From: a virus
DNA: 56,455 nt
Virus record (IMG/VR): IMGVR_UViG_3300045988_124381
Strand: one strand, 5' to 3'
This document shows, one piece after another, positions 5,415 to 56,393 of the stretch. A program made the translations under genes and the position numbers. Within the stretch, counting starts at the first letter, position 1. Every line of letters begins with the position of its first letter. The notes under the pieces were generated by a model. That model worked only from the letters and a program-made list of their open reading frames with translations, had not been told where the DNA came from and did not search any database.

Positions 5415-6350
5415 ATGAGTTTGATTAAGAAATCTAATGAATTGGTAATTCCTTCCACCGTTAAGATGATGATTTACGGTCAGGCAGGTATGGGTAAGAC
5501 AACAGTAGCTTTGAGTGCACCTAAACCATTATTACTCGACTTTGATAATGGTGTGAAACGTGTAAATATGGCTCATCTTGACGGTATAGACATCGTTCAG
5601 GTAAGTTCATGGCAGGATGTTCAACAAGTATTACAGGAAGATCTTTCGTCTTATCAGACAATCGTAGTGGACACTATCGGTAAGATGATGGATTTTATTA
5701 TCTCTTATAAATGTGGAACTAGGCAGCCGCAAATTAAGGATTGGGGCGGCATCAACGCTGAGTTCTCATGGATGACACGCACTCTTTCATCATTGAATAA
5801 GAATGTAGTGTTTGTAGCTCATAGGGATACACGAAAAGAGGGGGACGATACGGTATTTATCCCTGCTTTGCGAGAGAAATCCTATAATTCTATTGTGACA
5901 GAACTCGATTTGCTTGGGTATTTGGAAATGCGTAACGAAAACGGCGTGCAGAAGCGTACAATCACGTTTGATCCGACATCAAGGAACGACGGTAAGAATA
6001 CCTGTAACCTGCCCGGATTGATGCAGGTTCCAACGATACTTGACCGAAACGGAAATCCAACTGCCAAAAATGACTTCATTACCTCAAAGGTGATTGTACC
6101 CTATCTTAACATGTTGCAGGTAAAGAAAGAAGAAGCTGCAAAGTATGATAAGGTGATTGCTGAAATCAGGGAGAACATTGAACTTATTACTGATGCCAAT
6201 TCTGCAAATGAGTTTGCGTCAAGAATTAATGAGTTTGAGCATGTAGGCAGTTCCTTGAATATGGCCAGAAATCTGTTTTCAGCAAAAGTAAAAGCTCTCG
6301 GGCTGGTATTCGACAAAGAGACAAAGACCTATGCAGACAAAGCAGCCTAA
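5415..6350 (+). CDS. AAA_24 / Sak4-like RecA-fold ATPase
   Basis: Walker A MMIYGQAGMGKTT, Walker B-like IVVDTIG; sits upstream of nuclease and SSB as in phage recombination modules. Confidence 0.75.
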   Translation: MSLIKKSNELVIPSTVKMMIYGQAGMGKTTVALSAPKPLLLDFDNGVKRVNMAHLDGIDIVQVSSWQDVQQVLQEDLSSYQTIVVDTIGKMMDFIISYKCGTRQPQIKDWGGINAEFSWMTRTLSSLNKNVVFVAHRDTRKEGDDTVFIPALREKSYNSIVTELDLLGYLEMRNENGVQKRTITFDPTSRNDGKNTCNLPGLMQVPTILDRNGNPTAKNDFITSKVIVPYLNMLQVKKEEAAKYDKVIAEIRENIELITDANSANEFASRINEFEHVGSSLNMARNLFSAKVKALGLVFDKETKTYADKAA

Positions 6351-14425: not shown

Positions 14426-14997
14426 AAAAAGAAGAATTATTTTATCTGCTTGGCATAGAAGACATAAGAGACATGCCAGAAGCGATAGAACGAATAATAT
14501 TGGGTGATATTGAGGAGAGAAACCGCATATACCGAGATTTCTTGAAAGTTAACGACTACGACTTGTCATACGATTGGTTCCAGGAGATATACGAAGGGGA
14601 ACTTTCCGAGCGAAAACAGAAGAAGCAGGACTTTACACCAAATGAGTTGGGAGTAATATGCTCACAGCTGACCGATGGTAAAGGTAATGTTCACGAACCT
14701 ACAGCGGGAAACGGTTCGATGATTATAGCTGATTGGTGGCAGCGTTGTCGGCGTTTAATTCCTTGGGAGCATTTCCCATCACAGAATATGGTAACGTGTT
14801 GGGAACTTTCTTCGCGATCAATCCCAATTCTTCTGTTTAACCTCAGCATTCGCGGAATAATGGGATATGTGTATCATGGCGATGTTTTGGAAAATGAAGT
14901 AAAGCAGAAGTACATTCTTCTGAACAGGACAGATGATTCTTTGGGATTTTCAGAGGTTATTAAAGTTGGTATAAATGATATAATTGTAAAAGAATGA
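14422..14997 (+). CDS. N-terminal half of a gamma-class N6-adenine DNA methyltransferase (motifs X and I only)
   Basis: DFTPNELG then HEPTAGNGSMI (SAM motif I) then CWELSSRSIPILLFNLSIRGI. ORF ends before any NPPY/F motif IV. Confidence 0.5.
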   Translation: MKKEELFYLLGIEDIRDMPEAIERIILGDIEERNRIYRDFLKVNDYDLSYDWFQEIYEGELSERKQKKQDFTPNELGVICSQLTDGKGNVHEPTAGNGSMIIADWWQRCRRLIPWEHFPSQNMVTCWELSSRSIPILLFNLSIRGIMGYVYHGDVLENEVKQKYILLNRTDDSLGFSEVIKVGINDIIVKE

Positions 14998-15929
14998 AAT
15001 TGAATGAGGTTTACAACCTTTGGGTTGTATCGAAAACTAGACAAGTAAAGAAATCGACCATTGCCACGTATAAGATGATATATGCAAATTCAATATCACC
15101 GGAGTTTGGGAATATGGATATTAAGATTTTAAACAAGAAATGTGTTCAACCCGTCATTTATCGTTGGCTAGATGAAGGTAGGTCGGCTAAATATTGTAAT
15201 GATATTCTGATAGTTTTCCGAATGATAATGCGCTATGCATCTGAAGAAATGGATGAAGATATACCGGACATACATTGGAGGATGGTTTTCCCGACAACTT
15301 CAAAAAGAGCTTTTGATAAAGTAGAAAGATACACACAAGAAGAATATCGTAAGATTGTCAATTATGCAATTGAAAATCCATCTCCAAGGAATCTCGGTAT
15401 ATTATTGACTATATGCACAGGAATGCGTATAGGGGAAATATGTGCTCTGCAATGGAAAGACGTAGATTTTGACACAAAGACAATACAAGTATACAGAACA
15501 ATAGAGCGTATTTATAACCATGATACAAAAGTGTCTGAAATAATATTTAGTACTCCGAAAACATCCTCATCACAACGGCGTATTCCAATCATGAGGGAAA
15601 TTATTCCAATGATGAAAAAGTTTTGTGCTGTAAGTAAACCGGAATATTATGTATGTACGTGTTCCGAGAATTTTATCGAACCAAGAACGTACAGAAATTA
15701 TTATCGGTCATTTATCCTTGAGAAGGTCAAGCTTGGGCATGTGATTAAATTTCATGGATTGCGTCACACCTTTGCTACGGTCATGATTGAAAATAAGGTA
15801 GATATTAAAACAACATCTGTGATACTTGGTCATTCAGATGTCAGTACTACATTAAATGTTTATGTGCATCCGTCTGAAGAAGCTAAAAGAAGTGCTATGA
15901 ATGTAGGATTAAAGAAATTATTTAAGTAA
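14994..15929 (+). CDS. Tyrosine recombinase (XerC/phage-integrase type, 311 aa)
   Basis: GMRIGEICALQWKDVD (Arg box), HGLRHTFAT, LGHSDVSTTLNVYVH (His/Tyr box). Confidence 0.85.
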   Translation: MKLNEVYNLWVVSKTRQVKKSTIATYKMIYANSISPEFGNMDIKILNKKCVQPVIYRWLDEGRSAKYCNDILIVFRMIMRYASEEMDEDIPDIHWRMVFPTTSKRAFDKVERYTQEEYRKIVNYAIENPSPRNLGILLTICTGMRIGEICALQWKDVDFDTKTIQVYRTIERIYNHDTKVSEIIFSTPKTSSSQRRIPIMREIIPMMKKFCAVSKPEYYVCTCSENFIEPRTYRNYYRSFILEKVKLGHVIKFHGLRHTFATVMIENKVDIKTTSVILGHSDVSTTLNVYVHPSEEAKRSAMNVGLKKLFK

Positions 15930-16010
15930 GAAAATCAATGAAAACGAAATTGTATTACCTGTTCCTGGCAGTCATGTGGTGGCTGCTGGGATAGGTGGAA
16001 AGGAGAAACT

Positions 16011-16199
16011 ATGGCTGCATACGATGTAAACGGACGATGTGAAGACTGCACATTTGCAGACGTATTTGGAAGAAACTGCCAGCATGGGATGCTTTTCCCT
16101 GTTATGGTGCTGATGGCATACGGTGATGTGTATAAGTGCCCAAATTTCGAGAAAAAGACTATCGAACAAATTAGTGAACAGATAGCTCAAAGAGAATAA
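16011..16199 (+). CDS. Cys-rich small hypothetical protein
   Basis: ggaaaggagaaac precedes the ATG; the same 13-mer precedes the next gene. Confidence 0.45.
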   Translation: MAAYDVNGRCEDCTFADVFGRNCQHGMLFPVMVLMAYGDVYKCPNFEKKTIEQISEQIAQRE

Positions 16200-16216
16200 C
16201 GTAGAAAGGAGAAACC

Positions 16217-16519
16217 ATGAGAAGAGAAGATATTGACAAAGCAGCAGTAGATAGCTGTGTTATTGAGAATAGCATTTTTAATCCTGAATTAACCCCGTAT
16301 TATGAACAAGGATTCAAAGACGGTGCCAACTGGCGAATCAATAGCGTGTGGCATGAGATGTGCGAAAAACCCGATTTTTCAAAACTCCCAATTTTGTTAC
16401 AACATAAAAATGGTAAGATTCATTTTATTGATGATATACCTTCATCTTGGATTTATCTTCAAAAGTATTACACAAGATGGGCATACGTCAAAGACTTAAT
16501 ACCAAACATGGAGGAATGA
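16217..16519 (+). CDS. Hypothetical protein
   Basis: ORF in the array. Confidence 0.45.
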   Translation: MRREDIDKAAVDSCVIENSIFNPELTPYYEQGFKDGANWRINSVWHEMCEKPDFSKLPILLQHKNGKIHFIDDIPSSWIYLQKYYTRWAYVKDLIPNMEE

Positions 16520-16998
16520 ATATGAAAACAACAATTAACAAACCTGTAGAAGTAGAAGTGAAATTTTTAAAGGTAGATGCTACCGTTCGTTATTGGCAAG
16601 ATAGTGACATTAACGGTACAGAAGATTGTGATTGCGAGGAAGAAACGAATGAGCCTCAAATGCCATGTGCTAAGTATATAGGAGAGCAAAACAGAACTCT
16701 TCGGGCATACGACTGGCATTGGAAGCCGATTATCGACATAGACAATGGACGCATAATTAATTGGACCGATGGCATTACCGCTTCAATTCATTATAAGGTG
16801 TGCGACGAGTTCAGTTGCGACCTTATTGATGATGGGAACAATGTCATTTATTCTTATGAGGGTTATGTGCCACGCTGCATGTGTCCCAAGGAAAATGGAT
16901 ATGGGGATTACATTATCATGGATATTGACGGCAATGGGTTCATTCAGAATTGGAGGACTGAACTTGCATTAAGAATATTGGAAGAAAACGAGGATTGA
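16516..16998 (+). CDS. Hypothetical protein
   Basis: ATG 16516 overlaps the upstream stop (ATGA) and follows ggagga; preferred over the 16447 start. Confidence 0.45.
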   Translation: MNMKTTINKPVEVEVKFLKVDATVRYWQDSDINGTEDCDCEEETNEPQMPCAKYIGEQNRTLRAYDWHWKPIIDIDNGRIINWTDGITASIHYKVCDEFSCDLIDDGNNVIYSYEGYVPRCMCPKENGYGDYIIMDIDGNGFIQNWRTELALRILEENED

Positions 16999-17000
16999 TC

Positions 17001-17108
17001 ATGAAAGCCATATCCATCAAACAGCCGTGGGCGAGCTTAATCGCTCACGGTATCAAAGACATGAAAAAAATTGAGTTATTGTTTTATTTTTGTGTATTCT
17101 TTATCTGA
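17001..17108 (+). pseudogene. 5-prime remnant of an ASCH-domain gene, truncated after about 20 codons
   Basis: MKAISIKQPWASLIAHGIKD is a typical ASCH N-terminus. The frame then runs into AT-rich sequence (MKKIELLFYFCVFFI stop) and overlaps the convergent gene. Confidence 0.6.
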
Positions 17109-17630
17109 TGGCCTAGTAAGATTCCATTGACAGATTAAGACTTTACGATTTTTCTTATACCATTTTTTTATTGATTTTAGATATTTATTTTCAATATTTC
17201 CGTTGAGTTGAGTACATTCCATTATAGTGAATGCTGCTTCTTGTTCATCAATTAATACATGGAAGTGTGGTGGTAAGTGGTCGTTTGTACGTATTTCTAT
17301 TTTTATTTTATTATTTATTAAGTCTATAGCCCTGCATGGACCAGGGCATATTTCTGGTGTGAATGGAATCTTATATTTTATCCTTAAGTATATGCGGTAT
17401 AAATTAGGCAATAAGAAAAATGGAAGTAATAGGAGATGTAAGGAACCCCAAAATATAATGAAAAAAGTAAGCACGAAATAGCCCAACAATTTTTCATACC
17501 ATTTATTTTTGTTTACATGAGTAATATTTTTATTGTCTTCATCATATAATCCATATTCAATATCTTCTGATATAGTAAGCCTTAAATTTTCTTCTAAATA
17601 ATCCTTTATTATTTGAATTCCTTTTTCCAT
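17076..17630 (-). CDS. Membrane-anchored DUF4160-domain protein
   Basis: C-terminal NDHLPPHFHVLIDEQEAAFTI is the DUF4160 signature; a hydrophobic segment LLGYFVLTFFIIFWGSLHLLLLPFFLL precedes it. Confidence 0.7.
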   Translation of the reverse strand: MEKGIQIIKDYLEENLRLTISEDIEYGLYDEDNKNITHVNKNKWYEKLLGYFVLTFFIIFWGSLHLLLLPFFLLPNLYRIYLRIKYKIPFTPEICPGPCRAIDLINNKIKIEIRTNDHLPPHFHVLIDEQEAAFTIMECTQLNGNIENKYLKSIKKWYKKNRKVLICQWNLTRPSDKEYTKIKQ

Positions 17631-17753
17631 GTAACTTTTTTATCAAATCATACAAAAAACATACCAAAGTTTTTACTGACAGGCCTTGTCAGTGCTTTGT
17701 GGATACCCGGTAACTGCTTTGTGGCGGTTATCGGGTTATTCACAGATAAAGTA

Positions 17754-19115
17754 TTATTTGCGTACATTTTCAAATGCCAAGTTTATGCATTTATTTATAT
17801 GTTGTTTATCTAGAGATTCTATTTCACCTTTTCTATTTATATTTTCTATTATTGATATTTTATCGATTGATGGAGACTTGTCATTGTACCAAAAAGACTG
17901 ATTGTGTGTTTGGTAATAATTTAAGTCCTTTATGGAATAGCTTTTTGAGTTATATTTAAAGCTATTTGATGGTGTTAGATAATAAATCATTAAGAACACA
18001 TTCACGCAATTTAATAGACTTAATTCAGGTAATTTAAATAAATATTCCTTTATAGTAATAATATCATTTATACCTATCATTTTAAATAAAGCAATAGTGT
18101 AAGTTAACGGTGACTTAGTATTGAATTTAGTTCCTAAATAATCGTTCCCTATATAGTCCCTTTCAATAATATAACTATCCATCCCACTTATAATGCTTTT
18201 AATGGTTCTAATTGATAAAGAGCTTATTTTCTTCTCAAGTTCATTCGACATATTGTTGAAATCTTCTTTTGATAAACAACATTTATTTGATATTATTTTA
18301 TATAAATATTCTTGTGCTACTTTATTTATAGAATAATAAAATGGTTGATGACTTATAAATTTATTAATATAACCATTGTAATTAGCATTTTTCCCGTAGC
18401 AATGGTAGAAGATATTTTCGGTTGTACTGTTATCAAAAATCGTAATAATATTATCAAAATCAAACTTATTACTATAGTTCGATTTCTCATATAAATGTTC
18501 GTCTATATGAGCTCCTAATACATTCAATATGCGAAACAAATGTGCAGGGTCAATACGGTCAAGGTCTTCTATGATTAGGACTGTTTTATAACCAGATGAT
18601 TTGATGTATTTTAATGTTTCTATAATAAGTTCTGTGTAGCCATCATGTTCGTATAACCCTCCTTTTTGTGATGTAAACCAAGATTCATATTTTTTGAATG
18701 TCGTTTGTTCTTCTTTATATTTCTTAGCAAATGTCTTCCCTTTTTCAAGAATTTTATTTAGAATTTCTCCTTTGGGCAAACAAGAAATCAAGAAACTTAT
18801 TACTTCTTTTAGACTTTCCAAAGTGAATATAGAGTTTGTAATACCTTCAAAATCAATTGGATTTAATTTTCCATCTTTAGCCAATTGAAAAAGTATATCT
18901 CGTTTTATGTATTCGAAAATATCCTGGTTGTCTGCAATCGAATAATTGATAGGGTATAAGGTTATAAAATAATAATCATCTTTATAGAGTTTCTTGAATT
19001 CATTAAGAAAGAATGTCTTCCCATCTCCAAATTTTGCAGAGAAGATAGTACGTTCATTTATTTCAAGATGAGATTTGAAATCAGATAATTCTTTGTCTAT
19101 TGGTATGAGTTCCAT
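17754..19115 (-). CDS. KAP-family P-loop NTPase
   Basis: Walker A SAKFGDGKT, Walker B LIIEDLDRIDPAHLFRILNVL typical of KAP NTPases; start taken at MELIPID (19115). Confidence 0.7.
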   Translation of the reverse strand: MELIPIDKELSDFKSHLEINERTIFSAKFGDGKTFFLNEFKKLYKDDYYFITLYPINYSIADNQDIFEYIKRDILFQLAKDGKLNPIDFEGITNSIFTLESLKEVISFLISCLPKGEILNKILEKGKTFAKKYKEEQTTFKKYESWFTSQKGGLYEHDGYTELIIETLKYIKSSGYKTVLIIEDLDRIDPAHLFRILNVLGAHIDEHLYEKSNYSNKFDFDNIITIFDNSTTENIFYHCYGKNANYNGYINKFISHQPFYYSINKVAQEYLYKIISNKCCLSKEDFNNMSNELEKKISSLSIRTIKSIISGMDSYIIERDYIGNDYLGTKFNTKSPLTYTIALFKMIGINDIITIKEYLFKLPELSLLNCVNVFLMIYYLTPSNSFKYNSKSYSIKDLNYYQTHNQSFWYNDKSPSIDKISIIENINRKGEIESLDKQHINKCINLAFENVRK

Positions 19116-19246
19116 AATATTAAGATTAAATTGTTTCAGTAAAATTATATATAAAAATTGGATTCTGAAAGTAAGATTAATAAACTGTAAACCTTTTATA
19201 CCATAAAACAAATTCTATATAATCAATCAATTAAAATCAACAAATT

Positions 19247-19819
19247 ATGAATCTAAATGAACTAAGAGATAAAGCCTACCGTAACGCAGTTGCCCACGGA
19301 TGGCACGAAGAAAACCTAAGTGATGAACATTTCCTCTGTCTGGTCATATCCGAACTGATGGAAGCGGTGGAAGCTGACCGCAAAGGAAAACATGCTGATA
19401 CCAAAAAGTTCAATCAGGAAATGGATTACTACATACACGAGATGAAGCTGTATGGAGAAAACTATGATAAAGCCTATCGTGATACGTTTGAATATTATCT
19501 TAAAGATAGTGTGGAGGATGAACTTGCCGACGCCTGCATCCGGTTGTTGGATTTGGCAGGATTGAGAGGGTATGATTTGGACAAATTGGACTACGAAGGA
19601 AGCGATACAGTGGACTATTCCGAAATGGATTTTACGGAATCCATGTACAGAATATGTGTGTATGTAACTGACGGATTCTACAACGAATATTATGACACTC
19701 TTCTGAATGAGATATTCGCTTTCTGCAAAGACAGAAGTATAGACATCTTCTGGTTTATCAATCAGAAGATGAAGTACAATGAACTACGCCCATATAAGCA
19801 CGGAGATAAAAGCTACTGA
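19247..19819 (+). CDS. MazG-like all-alpha NTP pyrophosphohydrolase
   Basis: AHGWHEE...ISELMEAVEA...EDELADACIRLLDLAG pattern of phage MazG-like enzymes. Confidence 0.55.
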   Translation: MNLNELRDKAYRNAVAHGWHEENLSDEHFLCLVISELMEAVEADRKGKHADTKKFNQEMDYYIHEMKLYGENYDKAYRDTFEYYLKDSVEDELADACIRLLDLAGLRGYDLDKLDYEGSDTVDYSEMDFTESMYRICVYVTDGFYNEYYDTLLNEIFAFCKDRSIDIFWFINQKMKYNELRPYKHGDKSY

Positions 19820-19821
19820 CC

Positions 19822-20178
19822 ATGAAACACATATTCTACGCCTTAATCATTCTGCAAGCCCTGTACGAGCTTGTGAAGCTGTTTAGATGTAAATCCCTTT
19901 ACCGGCATGTGAAAGTATTCCAGAAGCTGGATAAGGCATCAAAAAAATGGTATCTGATGGCGCATCCGTGGTTTCATGTTGCGCTGCTTATAGATACTAT
20001 CGGGATTTTACTTTTGGGTATAGGATTGTTTTCAAGTCAATGGGTGTGTTTCCTCATTATCTTGGCCATGAGTTTTAGTCAGATCCAAAAGCTAGGAGCA
20101 TGGGCGGTATTTCTGGACAGCCTGATTACGGTCATCATCTACGTATTTGCCATCCTTAACGCATATCATTTGTCATAA
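19822..20178 (+). CDS. Membrane protein (3-4 TM)
   Basis: Multiple hydrophobic helices. Confidence 0.5.
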   Translation: MKHIFYALIILQALYELVKLFRCKSLYRHVKVFQKLDKASKKWYLMAHPWFHVALLIDTIGILLLGIGLFSSQWVCFLIILAMSFSQIQKLGAWAVFLDSLITVIIYVFAILNAYHLS

Positions 20179-20272
20179 AACAAAAAAAGGGAGCCAGCCC
20201 ACACGATTAGAAGCCAACTCCCACACACGATTATGATGCAAATATACTAATTCATTCTAAAACTATCGAACT

Positions 20273-20710
20273 ATGACAAAAGAATTTTCATCAATCGTGG
20301 AGTTGAAATCTATACGTGAACAGAAATCAAGATTATCGGAAAGAGAGCAGGAGCTTTCGTTACCAGTCCTGACTGATCTGTCGCTTATTCCGGAGATTTA
20401 CGGCTGGTTCAAGGAGATCCTTTCCGGGATGGACTGCCCTCCCAATCCTGAGAGCGTTACTCAGCGGAAGAAGTTCCTCTTCATCGTTCTGTTCCTGTTC
20501 GCCCCCAGCGTGCTGGCCGGCGGACGGCTGCCGAACGGTATCCGGGCAGAAATTTCCGGTGTGTTCCCGGATGTCTCCCCATGTGTAATATCGAACAATA
20601 TCGCCGATGTTTCCTTTATTTACCAGCAATATAAGGATTTCAGGCAGGATATAGAGTATCTTTACAATCAGATTTTAGAAAGGTTGAAAGTCAAAGAACT
20701 GATCAAGTAA
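20273..20710 (+). CDS. Hypothetical protein
   Basis: ORF in the array; central hydrophobic stretch. Confidence 0.45.
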   Translation: MTKEFSSIVELKSIREQKSRLSEREQELSLPVLTDLSLIPEIYGWFKEILSGMDCPPNPESVTQRKKFLFIVLFLFAPSVLAGGRLPNGIRAEISGVFPDVSPCVISNNIADVSFIYQQYKDFRQDIEYLYNQILERLKVKELIK

Positions 20711-20740
20711 CAGAATGTTTTTAATGGGGATAAAGTCCCT

Positions 20741-20989
20741 TTGTTTGAATTTTTATGTCTAACAAATTTAAATTTTAAAGGCCGAGTCAGAAGAAGAACA
20801 AAATCAGGTTGGGAAATAGCTCGACAAGCCGACAGATTAGCTCAACAGCGTTATGGAAGTAACTTTGACAATCCTAATAATCTTGTAAATAGGATTGCAG
20901 GCAGGTATCTTGGAAACTTCAATAGAAATGGAACCAGTTGGAATACACAAGTTTCAAAACGTATTTACATGGGACTTAATGATGGGTAA
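20741..20989 (+). CDS. Small Arg-rich protein ending RIYMGLNDG (start codon uncertain; frame is open from 20711)
   Basis: No in-frame ATG near the 5-prime end; paralog of 27650-27835. Confidence 0.45.
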   Translation: MFEFLCLTNLNFKGRVRRRTKSGWEIARQADRLAQQRYGSNFDNPNNLVNRIAGRYLGNFNRNGTSWNTQVSKRIYMGLNDG

Positions 20990-21011
20990 TTAGTAAAAGA
21001 ACTAATCGAGT

Positions 21012-21045
21012 AAAAAAGCCGGAAGCATAAAGCTCCGGCTTTTTG
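21012..21045. terminator. Bidirectional terminator between convergent genes
   Basis: aaaaa-agccgga-loop-tccggct-ttttt. Confidence 0.7.
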
Positions 21046-21046
21046 T

Positions 21047-21445
21047 TTACATTCTAAAATTTTTACCGCGTCCAATTCTTTCAAGGTATGTATCTGAAGA
21101 TTCTGTGGGTAAACAGATCGGAATGTTAAAACGAACTTTAGATATGGTGGAATTCTGTGCAGTAGATTCTGATGAAACTCCTGCATTTATAATTTTAGCA
21201 ATTCCAATTCCTGACTTTTCACCTGAATTTTCAGTAACAGATAGAGCTATATCCATATCTATATGCTGAACTCGTGGAGCTGGAATATAATAACCTGATT
21301 TAGGAGGTAATGCATATTCATTATCAGAGCCTCTATAGCAATCAGGATTAATTAAGACATTCTGGTCTTTGTATTTCTTTTGCACTTCTAACACTCCATC
21401 TATAATTTGGCTAATAGTTTCAGTAATAAATTCTTTAAGTTCCAT
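21047..21445 (-). CDS. Small hypothetical protein (possibly trypco2-like effector-associated fold)
   Basis: Pattern of alternating beta-like segments around SGEKSGIGIAKIINAGVS; weak impression only. Confidence 0.3.
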   Translation of the reverse strand: MELKEFITETISQIIDGVLEVQKKYKDQNVLINPDCYRGSDNEYALPPKSGYYIPAPRVQHIDMDIALSVTENSGEKSGIGIAKIINAGVSSESTAQNSTISKVRFNIPICLPTESSDTYLERIGRGKNFRM

Positions 21446-21515
21446 AATTATTTTCCTTTTTCTATTTTTATTTTATACAATAAACCCCGAACTACGAAGA
21501 ACGGGGCTGAAATAG

Positions 21516-22361
21516 TTATTTATAGATGTAATTATATCTTAGCTCGGATTTGTTATCCTTGTAACTATATGAAACACATATTTTATTTATAGTGCCATCT
21601 TCATTATAAAAATAGTCATAATATGTCCAAGAATCTGAATATGATTCCTTTTTCGATTTTCTTTGAATACGACCTGAAGAGTCATACTGGTATTCATATT
21701 TTTGCTCTATTGATTCTTTTCCAGTATCCCCATTTATATAAGTTTCCTGAAGTAAATTATCATGTGAATCATATTCAAAAATGAAGCTACCAAACAGAGA
21801 GCCATCATCAATATTTGTTTTTTCTATATAGATATTTTTCCCTTCATACCTATATTCGCTTATATAGCCAAAATTGTTGCTAACCCAAATGTCTTTTTCT
21901 ACTGTTTTTATCAATCTTTTTTGACTATCATATTCGTATGTCCATTCTTCATTCAGGTTTCCATCGTCATCATATACCAGCATGCGTGACACGGAGTCAA
22001 TGTTGTTATATTCATATTTACGTTTTTTTTCAAACAAAGTAAACGTATATTCGTTCATTTCCACTACACGCTTTTTGTCGTCGTATTCATATTTGTAATT
22101 GCAATCGATCCTACCATCCAATAAAGCGTTATAGTAGTTGGTGGTTTTTTCTTGCAATGTTCCGTCTGGATTATAGATATACTGTTCGTAAAGTTCTCCA
22201 TATTCATTTATCTCTCCAAATTTCTTTTCATGTTCGTTTATTACAATTTCAGACAGAACTTTATTTCCATTATTTCCTCCGGGTTCTCCATCACCATCGC
22301 TACTGCACCCCACAAAACACAAAGCCACCAGTATAGGCAAAATAAATAACATTTTCTTCAT
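21516..22361 (-). CDS. Lipoprotein with YD/RHS-like repeats
   Basis: MKKMLFILPILVALCFVGCSS lipobox; recurring YEYD...(R/K)(L/V) units (YKYEYDDKKRVV, YEYDSQKRLI, FEYDSHDNLL, YQYDSSGRIQ). Confidence 0.65.
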   Translation of the reverse strand: MKKMLFILPILVALCFVGCSSDGDGEPGGNNGNKVLSEIVINEHEKKFGEINEYGELYEQYIYNPDGTLQEKTTNYYNALLDGRIDCNYKYEYDDKKRVVEMNEYTFTLFEKKRKYEYNNIDSVSRMLVYDDDGNLNEEWTYEYDSQKRLIKTVEKDIWVSNNFGYISEYRYEGKNIYIEKTNIDDGSLFGSFIFEYDSHDNLLQETYINGDTGKESIEQKYEYQYDSSGRIQRKSKKESYSDSWTYYDYFYNEDGTINKICVSYSYKDNKSELRYNYIYK

Positions 22362-22380
22362 TTTACTTTGGTTTTATTGA

Positions 22381-22674
22381 TTAAACATCCATTTCCAATA
22401 ACTTTCTTAAATCCTCAAACGAGTGAACTTCATAAATAGTTCCTTTTACTTTTACAAAGCCGTTCACTTCGGAATCAGGTGTATTTCTTACAAATAGCTC
22501 CGAAATATCCACCTCTAAAGCATTTGCAATACGTTCTAAAGATTGTAATTGCGGATAATCACCTCTTAATGTCTTATTAAGACTAATATCAGATATACCC
22601 ATCTTATCAGCCAAATCTTTTTGAGTAAGACCCTTAGACTGGCAAAGTTCTTTTATCCTTGTTCTAAAATCCAT
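22381..22674 (-). CDS. XRE-family HTH transcriptional regulator
   Basis: GLTQKDLADKMGISDISLNKTLRGD helix-turn-helix. Confidence 0.75.
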   Translation of the reverse strand: MDFRTRIKELCQSKGLTQKDLADKMGISDISLNKTLRGDYPQLQSLERIANALEVDISELFVRNTPDSEVNGFVKVKGTIYEVHSFEDLRKLLEMDV

Positions 22675-31891: not shown

Positions 31892-32254
31892 ATGGATTAT
31901 TTGGAATACAAAGGTTACAAGGGTTCTGTGGAATACAGCAAAGAGGATAATTGCCTTTGCGGTAAAGTACAAGGAATGGGCAACAAAGCCTTGATTCTTT
32001 ATGAAGGGACTACCATTGACGAACTCCGAAAGGATTTTGAAGAAGGGATTGACAGCTATCTCGAAGGATGTAAAGCGGATGGTGTTGAGCCGGTAAAACC
32101 GTTTAGCGGAAAACTCAACCTACGTATGACTTCTGAGCTTCATGCACGTGTGGCTGCATTTGCCGCAAGTACAGGAATGACCATTAATGATTTCATCAAC
32201 AAGGCCATTGTCAATGAATTGGAACATGATTGTATCACTTTAAAAAGAAATTAA
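31892..32254 (+). CDS. hicB: HicB-family antitoxin with RHH C-terminus
   Basis: YKGYKGSVEYSKEDNCLCGKV...FSGKLNLRMTSELHARVAAFAASTGMTINDFINKAI. Confidence 0.8.
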   Translation: MDYLEYKGYKGSVEYSKEDNCLCGKVQGMGNKALILYEGTTIDELRKDFEEGIDSYLEGCKADGVEPVKPFSGKLNLRMTSELHARVAAFAASTGMTINDFINKAIVNELEHDCITLKRN

Positions 32255-32255
32255 A

Positions 32256-32612
32256 ATGAAAGTTAAAATTGGAGATTACAATTTACTAGAATCAATTACT
32301 ATTATTCAAATGCATAATTCACCTATATATTGTGAATTAGAAGATAAAATAGAAGGTGATGTACATTTAGAGATTGATTTTAAAGAGGATAGAAATGAAC
32401 CTCGTCCATATACAAATATTAAAGCGCAAGATAATTATAAATTGCTTATTACTATTTATAATCAAAAAGACAATGGTGGAAACTTGGAATTGATCAAAAT
32501 AGGAACTTATATGAGGAAGTATGAATTATACATAAATATTCGTATTGTAGATATTCATGATGATACTCATACTATTATCTTAAATTTATATACTAAGGAG
32601 ATGGAGGGATAA
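32256..32612 (+). CDS. Hypothetical cytosolic protein (118 aa), AT-rich
   Basis: Tightly packed after hicB; no recognisable motif. Confidence 0.5.
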   Translation: MKVKIGDYNLLESITIIQMHNSPIYCELEDKIEGDVHLEIDFKEDRNEPRPYTNIKAQDNYKLLITIYNQKDNGGNLELIKIGTYMRKYELYINIRIVDIHDDTHTIILNLYTKEMEG

Positions 32613-32614
32613 TT

Positions 32615-32971
32615 ATGGTTGAGGAACAGAATAATAGGTTTATATCCGGAACATATTCAAATGTTAAAAGTAGTCTTATAGAGATTACCGAAGATAAGTT
32701 AAATATTATTGTAAATAAATATTCTAATCAACTCAGAAAGACTAGAGATTGGGTAGGTTATAGTGGCATTTTAGTAACAATCCTACTATCATTACTAACG
32801 TGTGATTTTAATAATAATTTTTTAGGTATATCTAGTGATATTTGGTATGCTTTGTTTGTGATAGGTTTTATTGTTTCTGCTTTCTTGCTTTTAATATCCA
32901 TTTATAATGCTGTTAGATTTAGAAATATATCAGAGAAAATGATTAAAGAAATAAAAAACGAAGATAATTAA
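32615..32971 (+). CDS. Hypothetical 2-TM membrane protein (118 aa), AT-rich
   Basis: GYSGILVTILLSLLT and WYALFVIGFIVSAFLLLISIY helices; soluble N-terminal helix. Confidence 0.5.
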   Translation: MVEEQNNRFISGTYSNVKSSLIEITEDKLNIIVNKYSNQLRKTRDWVGYSGILVTILLSLLTCDFNNNFLGISSDIWYALFVIGFIVSAFLLLISIYNAVRFRNISEKMIKEIKNEDN

Positions 32972-32978
32972 GTATTTC

Positions 32979-33012
32979 AGCGTGATTATTCCAGTAGTCA
33001 CGCTTCCTTTTT
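32979..33012 (+). terminator. Rho-independent terminator
   Basis: agcgtga/tcacgct stem then tcctttttg. Confidence 0.6.
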
Positions 33013-55091: not shown

Positions 55092-56339
55092 TTATCCTCT
55101 CATCATCATAATATCAGACCTCAGTTCGATGTACTCCTTGTATTTCTCTGGATTGTTCACGTAATCAATCACTCGAGAAATAGCCATATCCGCCTGCTTT
55201 TGCCGGACTTTTGTGTAATATCTGATAACACCTTTAGAACTATCTGAATGTCCAAGACAGTAATCAATTATCCCGTCAGGAATGCCTATCTCAGAAGCAT
55301 ACTGAGCAAAAGACTTACGAGCCGAGTAAAACATCACTTTCTCACTGATTCCAATAGATTTAACGAGTATAGCCAATGAACGTGATATATACCGTTGAAA
55401 GTTCTTATAAGTAAACTTATATCCGAAATCTAACTTTCCTGTTGCTTTATTCATCCATGTTTGTATAATATCCATGGCCGGTTCTGGAATGGTAAAGCTG
55501 ATAATTTTTGTGCCTATTGTCCTATTCCTCGATTTGGTACGTACATATTCAATCTTTTCGGATTTTCTGAAATCATAGCTCATAAGGTCTATCAGGTTGA
55601 TTCCTCCTAGATAGAACGACAAACAGAATAAATCTCTGGCTATGCGAAGTCTTTTCTCTTGTGGTGATGACTTCCTAATGGCATTGAATGTTTCTACACT
55701 TATGTCTATATCTCTGACTGGAGAAGAAGGTATTGAGAAATCAATGTATGGATGGACTTCATATTTCACTATACGTTTCTTTATCGCACGATTGATGATT
55801 GTTTTAGTATGTCGCATCATCATCCCATTCGTTGTTTCTCCTAACTTTTTGTTTTTTCTCAGAAAGCCAGAATACCCTTCAATTATCTCGGGAGTGATGT
55901 CACACAAAAGTATATCTCCATGAACATATTCGGTAAAATATCTCCGGTTTATTCTGAGTAGGCCAGCATACCCACTGCTTCCTTTTTCTATCAACTCATT
56001 TTCGTATGCTATGCAAATCTGCTGGAATGTGGCAGATGTATCTTCTGACTGAGATTTAGAGATAATATTCTTAATCTGTGCACATGTGTATATTTCTTTG
56101 TTTTTGATAGCATCAAGTTTCTCCTGGTATTCATTTAGGAGATTTCTTAGTTTGGAGTTCATCATTGAAGCGTCAGGCCTTTTTACAACCTGCCCGTTTT
56201 TGAATTGGGACTCTGAGTCAATGATGAAGTTTGTAATGATGTAGGAAGTTTCTTGTTTGTGGCAGACTGCAATCCTAATTTTATGCCTGCCATCTTTTAA
56301 GACTTTAGCCTTGAATACGGTCAATTTGAGTGTTGCCAT
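55092..56339 (-). CDS. int: Phage integrase, Bacteroidetes arm-domain tyrosine recombinase (415 aa)
   Basis: MATLKLTVFKAKVLKDGRHKIRI arm-binding N-terminus; ARKSFAQYA and LGHSD...IRYYTK catalytic boxes; adjacent to the contig junction and attP candidate. Confidence 0.85.
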   Translation of the reverse strand: MATLKLTVFKAKVLKDGRHKIRIAVCHKQETSYIITNFIIDSESQFKNGQVVKRPDASMMNSKLRNLLNEYQEKLDAIKNKEIYTCAQIKNIISKSQSEDTSATFQQICIAYENELIEKGSSGYAGLLRINRRYFTEYVHGDILLCDITPEIIEGYSGFLRKNKKLGETTNGMMMRHTKTIINRAIKKRIVKYEVHPYIDFSIPSSPVRDIDISVETFNAIRKSSPQEKRLRIARDLFCLSFYLGGINLIDLMSYDFRKSEKIEYVRTKSRNRTIGTKIISFTIPEPAMDIIQTWMNKATGKLDFGYKFTYKNFQRYISRSLAILVKSIGISEKVMFYSARKSFAQYASEIGIPDGIIDYCLGHSDSSKGVIRYYTKVRQKQADMAISRVIDYVNNPEKYKEYIELRSDIMMMRG

Positions 56340-56393
56340 ATAGATTAAAAATTTTAGGATAAGTAAAAGATAAGTGCAAAACCTCAAAAGTGA

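Follow-up and report, generated by a model that had tools for sequence, protein, structure and literature searches.

Two antisense single-gene modules flank a conserved hairpin element in a cargo hotspot of temperate phages of gut Bacteroidota

Genes and features of the locus

The IMG/VR virus record IMGVR_UViG_3300045988_124381 is a 56,455-nt stretch of DNA (here called the window) with a mean GC content of 0.40; it represents a temperate phage, about 50 kb in size, that has nearly all of its genes on the + strand. At positions 17001–19246, the remnant of an ASCH gene and a MazG-like gene enclose two genes of opposite orientation, one for a protein with a DUF4160 domain (DUF4160L) and one for a KAP-like P-loop NTPase, and a 64-nt element that folds into two hairpins lies between these two genes. 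A preliminary description took the pair for a single two-gene cassette. Comparison with related phages shows instead that the region consists of two independently acquired, antisense, AT-rich single-gene modules, one on either side of the element; each gene occurs alone in relatives and each module has its own borders.

The three open reading frames (ORFs) described previously were recovered at their positions and on their strands. The first (17001–17108, + strand) codes for 35 aa, of which the first 20 are MKAISIKQPWASLIAHGIKD. The second (17076–17630, − strand) codes for the 184 aa of DUF4160L, and the third (17754–19115, − strand) for the 453 aa of the KAP-like protein when read from its ATG; an alternative TTG start at 19211 would give 485 aa, and the alignment of the family begins at the ATG. 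The MazG-like pyrophosphatase gene follows at 19247–19819 (+ strand), its product matching phrog_9236 (8e-63) and giving a weak MazG-like match. A windowed GC check bore out the AT-rich character claimed for the two-gene stretch. The GC content was 0.276 over 17001–19246 and 0.271 over 17063–19222, the latter being the minimum among all 2.16-kb sliding windows of the 56-kb window (the runner-up elsewhere, at ~21 kb, had 0.3125). The foreign composition and opposite orientation noted earlier thus stand, as this is low-GC accessory DNA antisense to the phage backbone.

A hypervariable hotspot divided into two slots

Relatives were collected as 80 phage loci fetched with the MazG-like protein as anchor and 10 more fetched with the KAP protein; loci are referred to by L numbers. 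This comparison establishes the architecture and spread of the modules, while their functions, which we infer, are taken up further below. A megablast search of 15000–21500 against GenBank phages gave no match.

Both anchors, ASCH and MazG, were present in 56 loci, and in these the distance from ASCH start to MazG start ranged across relatives from 146 to 3091 bp. The intervening inserts had a low GC content, mostly 0.29–0.40, and their gene content differed widely between phages; cargo lay in both orientations and was frequently multi-gene. Homology at the DNA level between the window and the MazG-anchored relatives was confined to three pieces, 17001–17062, 17673–17736 and ~19223 onward, of which the second is the 64-nt element. 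These phages, a large family of temperate siphophages that infect gut Bacteroidota (probably Prevotella/Segatella), therefore have a hypervariable cargo hotspot between ASCH and MazG. The element splits this hotspot into two slots, slot A on the ASCH side and slot B on the MazG side.

The commonest recognisable cargo was a KAP-like gene, found in 17 of the 80 element-bearing loci, always antisense, with 35–100% identity and with its start codon usually 83–133 nt to the left of the element. Other cargo comprised a 985-aa HD-CE and GHKL-ATPase (HATPase_c) protein in L009, a 521-aa ORC-CDC6-like protein in L016, a KAP/YobI-like protein in L023 (28.2 bits with Pfam KAP_NTPase) and several small membrane proteins. 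In L105 (6302–7350), slot A beside an identical KAP allele held a gene for a SocA_Panacea protein (149 aa) overlapping a 203-aa gene, a pair that is likely to be a Panacea-type toxin–antitoxin; PADLOC matched neither of these two proteins. The HD-CE/GHKL, ORC-CDC6-like, KAP/YobI-like and Panacea-type proteins are typical components of conflict systems. When six cargo proteins and two KAP alleles from relatives were submitted to PADLOC, none matched, apart from a weak REase match of the 985-aa protein.

Two modules with separate borders

Module 1, the insertion carrying DUF4160L, extends on the − strand from 17063/17064 to ~17652, with borders taken from L100–L102 (17064–17702), L091 and L098. 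Module 2, which carries the KAP-like gene, extends from 17737 to ~19222 (− strand) and includes ~107 nt of its own upstream region. The left border of module 2 was given by L080, where the same gene stands in a different left context without the element. Its right border was given by the empty site in L098, L035 and L028, where ATTTTATTTT sits: the empty site reads CGGGT, ATTTTATTTT, CAATCAATTAAAATCAA, compared with CGGGT, 1,486 bp, CAATCAATTAAAATCAA in the window. A 10-nt T-run between the element and MazG has thus given way to the KAP module.

The two genes also travel separately. An identical KAP protein without DUF4160L was found in L005, L080, L105 and L106; in L005, L105 and L106 the homology to the window begins at the element and the left side is unrelated. 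Among the 24 longest public contigs with the exact KAP protein, 14 were arranged like the window, one had other genes in slot A and nine had no DUF4160L. In L005 and L080, the same KAP gene stands beside MazG genes that are 77% and 59% identical, respectively. DUF4160L was found without KAP in L098 and L099, where the ASCH remnant precedes DUF4160L (82% aa identity) and the element leads directly into the T-run and MazG, and in L091 (91%). In L100–L102, the DUF4160 module (17064–17702) is in another backbone, adjoining an AbiP/AbiC-like gene. In L101, DUF4160L lies 2.5 kb from a KAP-like gene, behind three backbone genes that include one for an FRG-domain protein.

The right homologous-recombination arm (19223–19390, + strand) consists of the MazG upstream region and the first ~145 nt of the MazG-like gene. 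A block of ~100% identity with L005, L080 and L105 reaches ~19390, after which identity falls sharply to 40–80%. As the block continues ~145 nt into MazG, the crossover was in the conserved MazG 5′ region, and the MazG-like gene, with a ~100% identical 5′ part and a remainder at 40–80%, is a recombinant mosaic. The preliminary description had normal phage composition resuming at 19247, which is right as to composition, but the recently exchanged block runs past that point into MazG. The position of the crossover points to homologous recombination in conserved flanks rather than to site-specific insertion. Modules spread from one phage to another through homologous recombination, with the element and the 5′ ends of ASCH and MazG as the conserved flanks.

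Truncation of ASCH

The ASCH remnant (17001–17062, + strand) comprises the first 20 codons and is 88–98% identical to the ASCH 5′ end in most relatives. Homology with their ASCH genes ends at 17062–17067, and the open frame continues into foreign DNA as far as the stop at 17108. The N-terminus matches phrog_3193. In most of the 56 two-anchor loci the ASCH orthologue is intact, with 123–148 aa, and the Pfam ASCH model gave 27–29 bits (cut-off 21.2) with two of these intact proteins; the resident gene is thus truncated, as was first proposed. The junction 17062/17063 is common to the DUF4160L carriers L091, L098 and L099, so that the truncation goes with module 1. The idea that the whole island had been inserted into ASCH holds for the DUF4160 module, which adjoins the remnant, but not for the KAP module, which replaced the T-run before MazG.

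Truncation at this site was not unique to the DUF4160L carriers. In L001, ASCH is cut at codon 19–21 by a gene for a 174-aa membrane protein, in L105 it is cut at codon 19, and in L018 and L021 deletions join ASCH codon 14 to the 64-nt element. Breaks thus recur in the conserved 5′ end of ASCH, which has been truncated independently several times, and the gene is dispensable. In L101 (3814–5273), ASCH is cut at codon ~17, with a frameshift, by a KAP-like gene 37% identical to that of the window.

A 64-nt hairpin element of the phage backbone

The spacer between the two genes (17631–17753) is 123 nt long with a GC content of 0.374, rising to 0.516 in the 64-nt core. This core is the conserved element (17673–17736, + strand), made up of hairpin 1, TGCTTTGTGG and hairpin 2. 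Hairpin 1 (17675–17681 paired with 17687–17693) has the form ACTGACA-N5-TGTCAGT, with an invariant stem and a variable loop, and is separated from hairpin 2 by the segment TGCTTTGTGR. Hairpin 2 is formed in relatives by 17703–17717 paired with 17724–17738, giving 15–18 bp (ATACCCGGTAACTGC...GCGGTTATCGGGTAT). Both hairpins reported earlier do fold, and the 10-nt direct repeat TGCTTTGTGG is exact in its copies at 17693 and 17715, the second of which is on the loop side of hairpin 2. In most relatives a T-run, TTTTATTT, directly follows hairpin 2; this T-run has been lost in the window.

The element was 89–97% identical in 65 of the first 90 loci, every time in the backbone orientation, and was more conserved than the flanking MazG gene (81–88% DNA identity in most relatives). 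A strict pattern for its 38-nt core matched 84 viral contigs, with one copy in each. Element and MazG were co-oriented in all 46 loci with a detectable MazG; the distance between them varied, and was ~33 nt to the MazG start codon in the simplest genomes. ASCH, too, always ran in the direction of the element. The idea that the element is a dispersed repeat or miniature inverted-repeat transposable element was rejected, as the window and each of the viral contigs contain it only once. The element is part of the phage backbone rather than of either AT-rich gene. The earlier suggestion that the spacer is an RNA or regulatory part of the cassette therefore fails, since the element is kept in about 80 relatives whatever their cargo and folds on the opposite (+) strand.

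The structure was examined in 24 distinct variants of the element. Standard pairs made up 97.7% of the pair cells; there was one compensatory pair (A-U to C-G, in L022), and one G.U pair was changed to G-C in three variants and to A-U in three (six changes). This covariation is modest because the sequence of the element is so conserved. RNA folding of the + strand gave −41.9 kcal/mol for the window (z = −8.7) and −36.5 kcal/mol for a typical relative (z = −7.4), while the − strand of the element reached −25.4 kcal/mol at most. A 41-aa antisense ORF (17648–17773) was rejected as a gene, as its counterparts in relatives begin in unrelated flanks, the changes keep base pairing, and G.U pairs function on the + strand only. 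A search of 17400–18000 against Rfam found no family, with only a chance mir-10 match (E = 3.8).

The element is most likely an intrinsic terminator or attenuator on the + strand, placed before the MazG operon, a reading that comes from the fold and from visual inspection. Against it, a simple terminator scan missed the element both in the window and in L012, which keeps the T-run. The near-invariance of the primary sequence suggests that the element may also be a protein-binding or regulatory site. In L091 (~5930–5960) and in L100–L102 (~2858–2890 in L102), exactly 22 nt between the TGCTTTGTGG repeats are deleted, which destroys hairpin 2. L100–L102 have a second, complete copy of the element across the DUF4160 module from the partial one.

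To the left of the element, a short conserved motif beginning with CAAAAAACATACCAAAG (17653–17672; no strand assigned) lies between it and the 5′ end of minus-strand cargo genes. L020, L030 and L056 share this motif and bear different, unrelated minus-strand cargo there. Because the motif precedes unrelated cargo and the KAP-like starts elsewhere are fixed at 83–133 nt, the left flank of the element could, as these sequences hint, be a shared promoter or leader for antisense cargo. A sigma-70 promoter scan, whose coverage does not extend to Bacteroidota promoters, found promoter-like sites at chance level.

The KAP-like NTPase

The assignment of the 453-aa protein to the KAP family was partly upheld. 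The window protein itself scored below the Pfam cut-off (given below), but its relatives support the family: 21 of 32 full-length members matched KAP_NTPase (E <= 0.01), with a best E-value of 8.6e-07, and some relatives gave weak Pfam YobI-ATPase matches. Across the 32 members, the Walker A motif GDGKT (G30 D31 G32 K33) and the Walker B motif EDLDR (E183 D184 L185 D186 R187) were invariant. A member of the same cluster is labelled at NCBI as "KAP family P-loop domain [Caudoviricetes sp.]". The protein has no transmembrane segment by the Kyte-Doolittle-19 measure, with a maximum of 1.52 and no window at 1.6.

The family is large. More than 2,197 clusters at 90% identity matched, mostly from Prevotella, Phocaeicola and Bacteroides material and typically 435–475 aa long. 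In species-representative genomes the family was found across Bacteroidota, with a few matches in metagenome-assembled genomes labelled as other phyla and none above 49% identity; it is also common in Bacteroidota chromosomes. Identity to the window protein fell along the chain, from 59–74% over residues 1–260 to 38–44% over 261–380 and 21% over 381–453, so that a conserved motor is joined to a diversifying C-terminus. An AlphaFold2 model had a mean predicted local distance difference test score (pLDDT) of 79 and a predicted template modelling score (pTM) of 0.74, and a search of PDB sequences with the family profile found nothing.

Single-gene KAP NTPases with uncharacterised C-terminal regions, three of them from human gut metagenomes, confer Walker B-dependent protection against phage (PMC13552941), and PifA, a KAP member that excludes T7, is without the transmembrane helices that KAP and YobI proteins usually have (PMC13001434). 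Like EF_KAP and the three gut metagenomic KAP proteins (PMC13552941) and like PifA, the window protein is one polypeptide with an N-terminal KAP-type P-loop (GxxxxGKT, hhhhEDLDR) and a C-terminal ~190 aa without a recognisable domain, and it is carried on mobile DNA. It shares with PifA of the F plasmid the lack of transmembrane helices (PMC13001434). It differs from EF_KAP, which has two such helices, in having none, and further in its Pfam score below the cut-off and in belonging to a Bacteroidota phage family. Tmn, a YobI-family transmembrane NTPase, is a further case of defence by a single P-loop NTPase, with sensor regions that vary (PMC13001434). Two transmembrane helices interrupt its P-loop domain, however, and it assembles into a decamer in the membrane, whereas the window protein has no hydrophobic segment and no PADLOC match to Tmn or YobI. 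Nor did PADLOC match it to QatA, and the module, having a single gene, contains no neighbouring qatB, qatC or qatD. By analogy, it is plausible that the protein falls in the class of single-gene KAP defences, which would be its closest functional precedent.

A membrane-tethered DUF4160 protein

For the 184-aa protein the description of a DUF4160 core behind a hydrophobic membrane segment proved correct. Pfam DUF4160 (PF13711) gave 47 bits (cut-off 23) over residues 113–170, covering profile positions 6–65 of 65. NCBIfam DhiT (NF048015) gave 32.5 bits, far below its equivalog cut-off of 100. The hydrophobic segment spans residues ~48–77, with a Kyte-Doolittle-19 maximum of 2.25 at residues 57–68, and AlphaFold2 placed a helix at 41–85.

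The protein was tried as something unique to this phage, and this was rejected; it belongs to a conserved family found on several kinds of mobile element. Fifteen clusters align over the full length at 48–97% identity, and all full-length members have a conserved acidic N-terminus, a hydrophobic stretch of ~30 residues with variable sequence, a conserved PNLYRLYLRIKYKIPF linker and the DUF4160 core. Searching 1.8 billion representatives with a profile gave 869 DUF4160 relatives. In the best 149 sequences examined, 24 had a hydrophobic segment upstream of the core and the others were short (median 128 aa), which marks proteins with a membrane tether as a separate minority subfamily rather than a one-off.

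The neighbourhoods of the homologues, which adjoin AbiP/AbiC-like genes in other phages and in a capsule-synthesis locus lie directly upstream of AbiLi/AbiLii (241 and 58 bits), would by guilt by association be defence-island company. Homologues also occur on chromosomal islets, where small ORFs of 41–52 aa lie just upstream of some copies. In the conjugative elements L108–L112 (990–4994 in L110, with relaxase, ParA and DUF4134/TrbC neighbours), DUF4160L is fifth in a conserved same-strand gene string, in the order putAbiC, 235 aa, 325 aa, 101 aa, DUF4160L, 85–94 aa. The middle genes of the string had no Pfam or PADLOC match, and the string could be a larger system.

DhiT, a DUF4160 protein, inhibits growth and is neutralised by DhiA, a DUF2442 protein (PMC8198452), and DUF4160 is also the effector domain of Menshen NsnC (PMC12065111). 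With DhiT of the DhiT/DhiA pair of Dickeya dadantii (PMC8198452), DUF4160L has in common the DUF4160 core including the HLPPHFH motif; it differs in its ~100-aa N-terminal extension with a hydrophobic helix and in having no adjacent DUF2442 gene. No DUF2442 was found in the protein or in its listed neighbours, and the module (17063–17652, 590 bp) holds only the 184-aa ORF and has no room for another. NsnC, which stands in a defence context, resembles DUF4160L in having a C-terminal DUF4160 module fused to another region (PMC12065111), but the N-terminal part of DUF4160L differs, and the window has neither the NsnA/NsnB partners nor a PADLOC match to Menshen.

Proposed function and alternatives

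On balance we think it probable, with room for doubt, that the locus holds two independent modules placed around a backbone element in a recombination-driven hotspot, each probably acting alone in anti-phage defence or exclusion. The defence or exclusion role that was first suggested is plausible in view of the neighbourhoods and of recent literature. The arrival of DUF4160L in slot A (17063–17652) is tied to the loss of all but 20 ASCH codons, and the KAP-like module has taken the place of the element's 10-nt T-run in slot B (17737–19222). Under this reading, each gene would by itself be a prophage-borne anti-phage or exclusion determinant, expressed in the lysogen antisense to the early lytic operon. 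The N-terminal P-loop module of the KAP-like protein would hydrolyse NTP, and its hypervariable C-terminal ~190 aa may determine target specificity or effector activity, on the model of the single-gene KAP defences and PifA. DUF4160L would hold a DhiT-type growth-inhibiting domain at the inner membrane by its hydrophobic helix, its acidic N-terminal extension may stand in for a separate DUF2442 antitoxin, and it could be released or activated upon infection.

The setting resembles the moron and defence hotspots of other prophages, such as those of P2/P4-like phages and the lambdoid rexAB and sieB: a fixed site lies between backbone genes, recombination takes place in the flanks, and the cargo is AT-rich, antisense and autonomously transcribed. 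What sets the present hotspot apart is the conserved, structured 64-nt element that splits it and the predominance of KAP-like NTPases among its cargo.

Several results weigh against this interpretation. With Pfam KAP_NTPase (PF07693) the window protein reached 17.7 bits, short of the cut-off of 20, and a Foldseek search of the PDB with its model gave weak, generic matches to AAA+, ORC/Cdc6 and HslU proteins (best E = 6e-3). Neither the KAP-like protein nor DUF4160L of the window matched PADLOC at E <= 1, and no KAP allele tried did so. Most contigs with this KAP allele (14 of 24) have both genes, which leaves room for cooperation. Phage hotspots also carry counter-defence genes. A Foldseek search of the PDB with the DUF4160L model found nothing credible, which agrees with DUF4160 having no known structural homologue (PMC12065111).

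DUF4160L could instead be an addiction toxin that stabilises the prophage or mobile element, with its own N-terminal extension, a small ORF or an antisense RNA as the antitoxin, which we regard as unlikely. Its core matches the model of DhiT, a validated toxin (PMC8198452), the gene is carried by phages, conjugative elements and chromosomal islets, and 41–52 aa ORFs precede some chromosomal copies. However, these upstream ORFs are not conserved across contexts, the DUF2442 partner is missing from a 590-bp module with room for one gene only, and a single-protein toxin–antitoxin fusion is unproven for this family.

It is improbable that the KAP-like protein and DUF4160L form one co-functional cassette, with the NTPase as sensor, a membrane toxin as effector and possibly an RNA encoded in the spacer. 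The two genes adjoin each other and share strand and composition, their pairing is the commonest context of the KAP allele (14 of 24 contigs), the phage of L101 holds both types of gene 2.5 kb apart, and homologues of DUF4160L immediately precede AbiLi/AbiLii, which is also a P-loop ATPase system. Yet close relatives carry either gene alone, including identical or 82–91% identical alleles, and the KAP-like alleles are usually alone in slot A. The two modules have separate borders, and the DNA between them is a backbone element that is found in phages with neither gene and folds on the opposite strand.

There is a slim chance that one or both genes serve the lytic cycle or counter-defence, the KAP-like protein as an anti-defence ATPase and DUF4160L as a holin-like or membrane-remodelling protein. 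Accessory hotspots generally hold anti-defence as well as defence genes, and this one lies within the early region, adjoining a MazG-like pyrophosphatase. Both genes are, however, antisense to the early operon, variably present and swapped for defence-type proteins in siblings; in addition, KAP-like genes are common in Bacteroidota chromosomes and DUF4160L occurs in non-phage elements beside Abi genes.

A tyrosine recombinase of 311 aa (14994–15929, + strand; Phage_integrase and SAM_3) is encoded inside the early region, 1.1 kb upstream of the ASCH remnant. None of the 80 MazG-anchored relatives encodes it, and a 57% identical copy was found only in L084 and L087; because of this absence, it is not the agent of cargo exchange. 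An integron-like array in which this second recombinase acts on the 64-nt element as an attC- or att-like site is very improbable and was rejected: although the limits of the cargo fall at the edges of the element and full and partial copies flank DUF4160L in L100–L102, relatives with the hotspot have no such recombinase, each genome has a single element, the partial copy has lost 22 nt between the two 10-nt direct repeats, cargo lies in both orientations and often comprises several genes, and crossovers fall in the flanking genes, with an exchanged block reaching 145 nt into MazG as homologous recombination predicts.

Implications of the two-module reading

A joint proposal, that DUF4160L is a new class of single-protein abortive infection (Abi) effector, that the soluble KAP-like proteins are a major prophage defence family and that both are exchanged through the 64-nt docking element, is put forward tentatively, as we think it has well under an even chance of being right in all parts. 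If it were true, an N-terminal extension and a membrane helix would replace the DUF2442 antitoxin in a family that counts at least 20 clusters (50% identity) and is carried by phages, conjugative elements and Abi islets. With >2,000 clusters and a C-terminus that is hypervariable, the soluble KAP-like proteins of Bacteroidota would rank as a major prophage-borne defence family of the human gut that has so far gone unlisted, and the structured docking element would also control early-to-middle transcription.

The putative KAP-type single-gene defence and the DhiT-type toxin domain are of known kinds; what is new is the membrane-tethered, antitoxin-less architecture of the latter. Current ideas are not overturned by this; known patterns are extended to an under-studied clade, and probable anti-phage genes are a familiar kind of finding. 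Catalogues of defence systems cover Prevotella/Segatella and other gut Bacteroidota poorly, and neither gene nor the KAP alleles tried are matched by PADLOC. The hotspot is well delimited, with natural "empty", "single" and "double" configurations, and, like the large KAP-like family with its diversifying C-terminus and the antitoxin-less, membrane-tethered DhiT domain, it can be cloned directly to test toxicity and the response to phage challenge. As a compact sequence, the 64-nt element is a candidate regulatory RNA or terminator and a possible marker for cargo genes in this phage family.

Other features of the window

The integrase proper, a canonical one with an Arm-DNA-binding domain, is encoded at 55092–56387. 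A second low-GC antisense block (21047–22674, − strand, GC content 0.319) contains genes for a 97-aa HTH_3 protein (Cro/C1-type), a 281-aa protein with a weak RHS/YD-repeat match and a lipoprotein-like N-terminus, and a 132-aa protein. At the matching position L105 has a gene for a 433-aa AAA_15/AAA_21 ATPase (PADLOC candidate PDC-M29A, 208 bits) together with a 205-aa gene. This block looks like a second cargo hotspot. In the structural-gene region, the GC content dips to 0.298 over 32001–33000, where three ORFs of 118–120 aa lie at 31892–32971.

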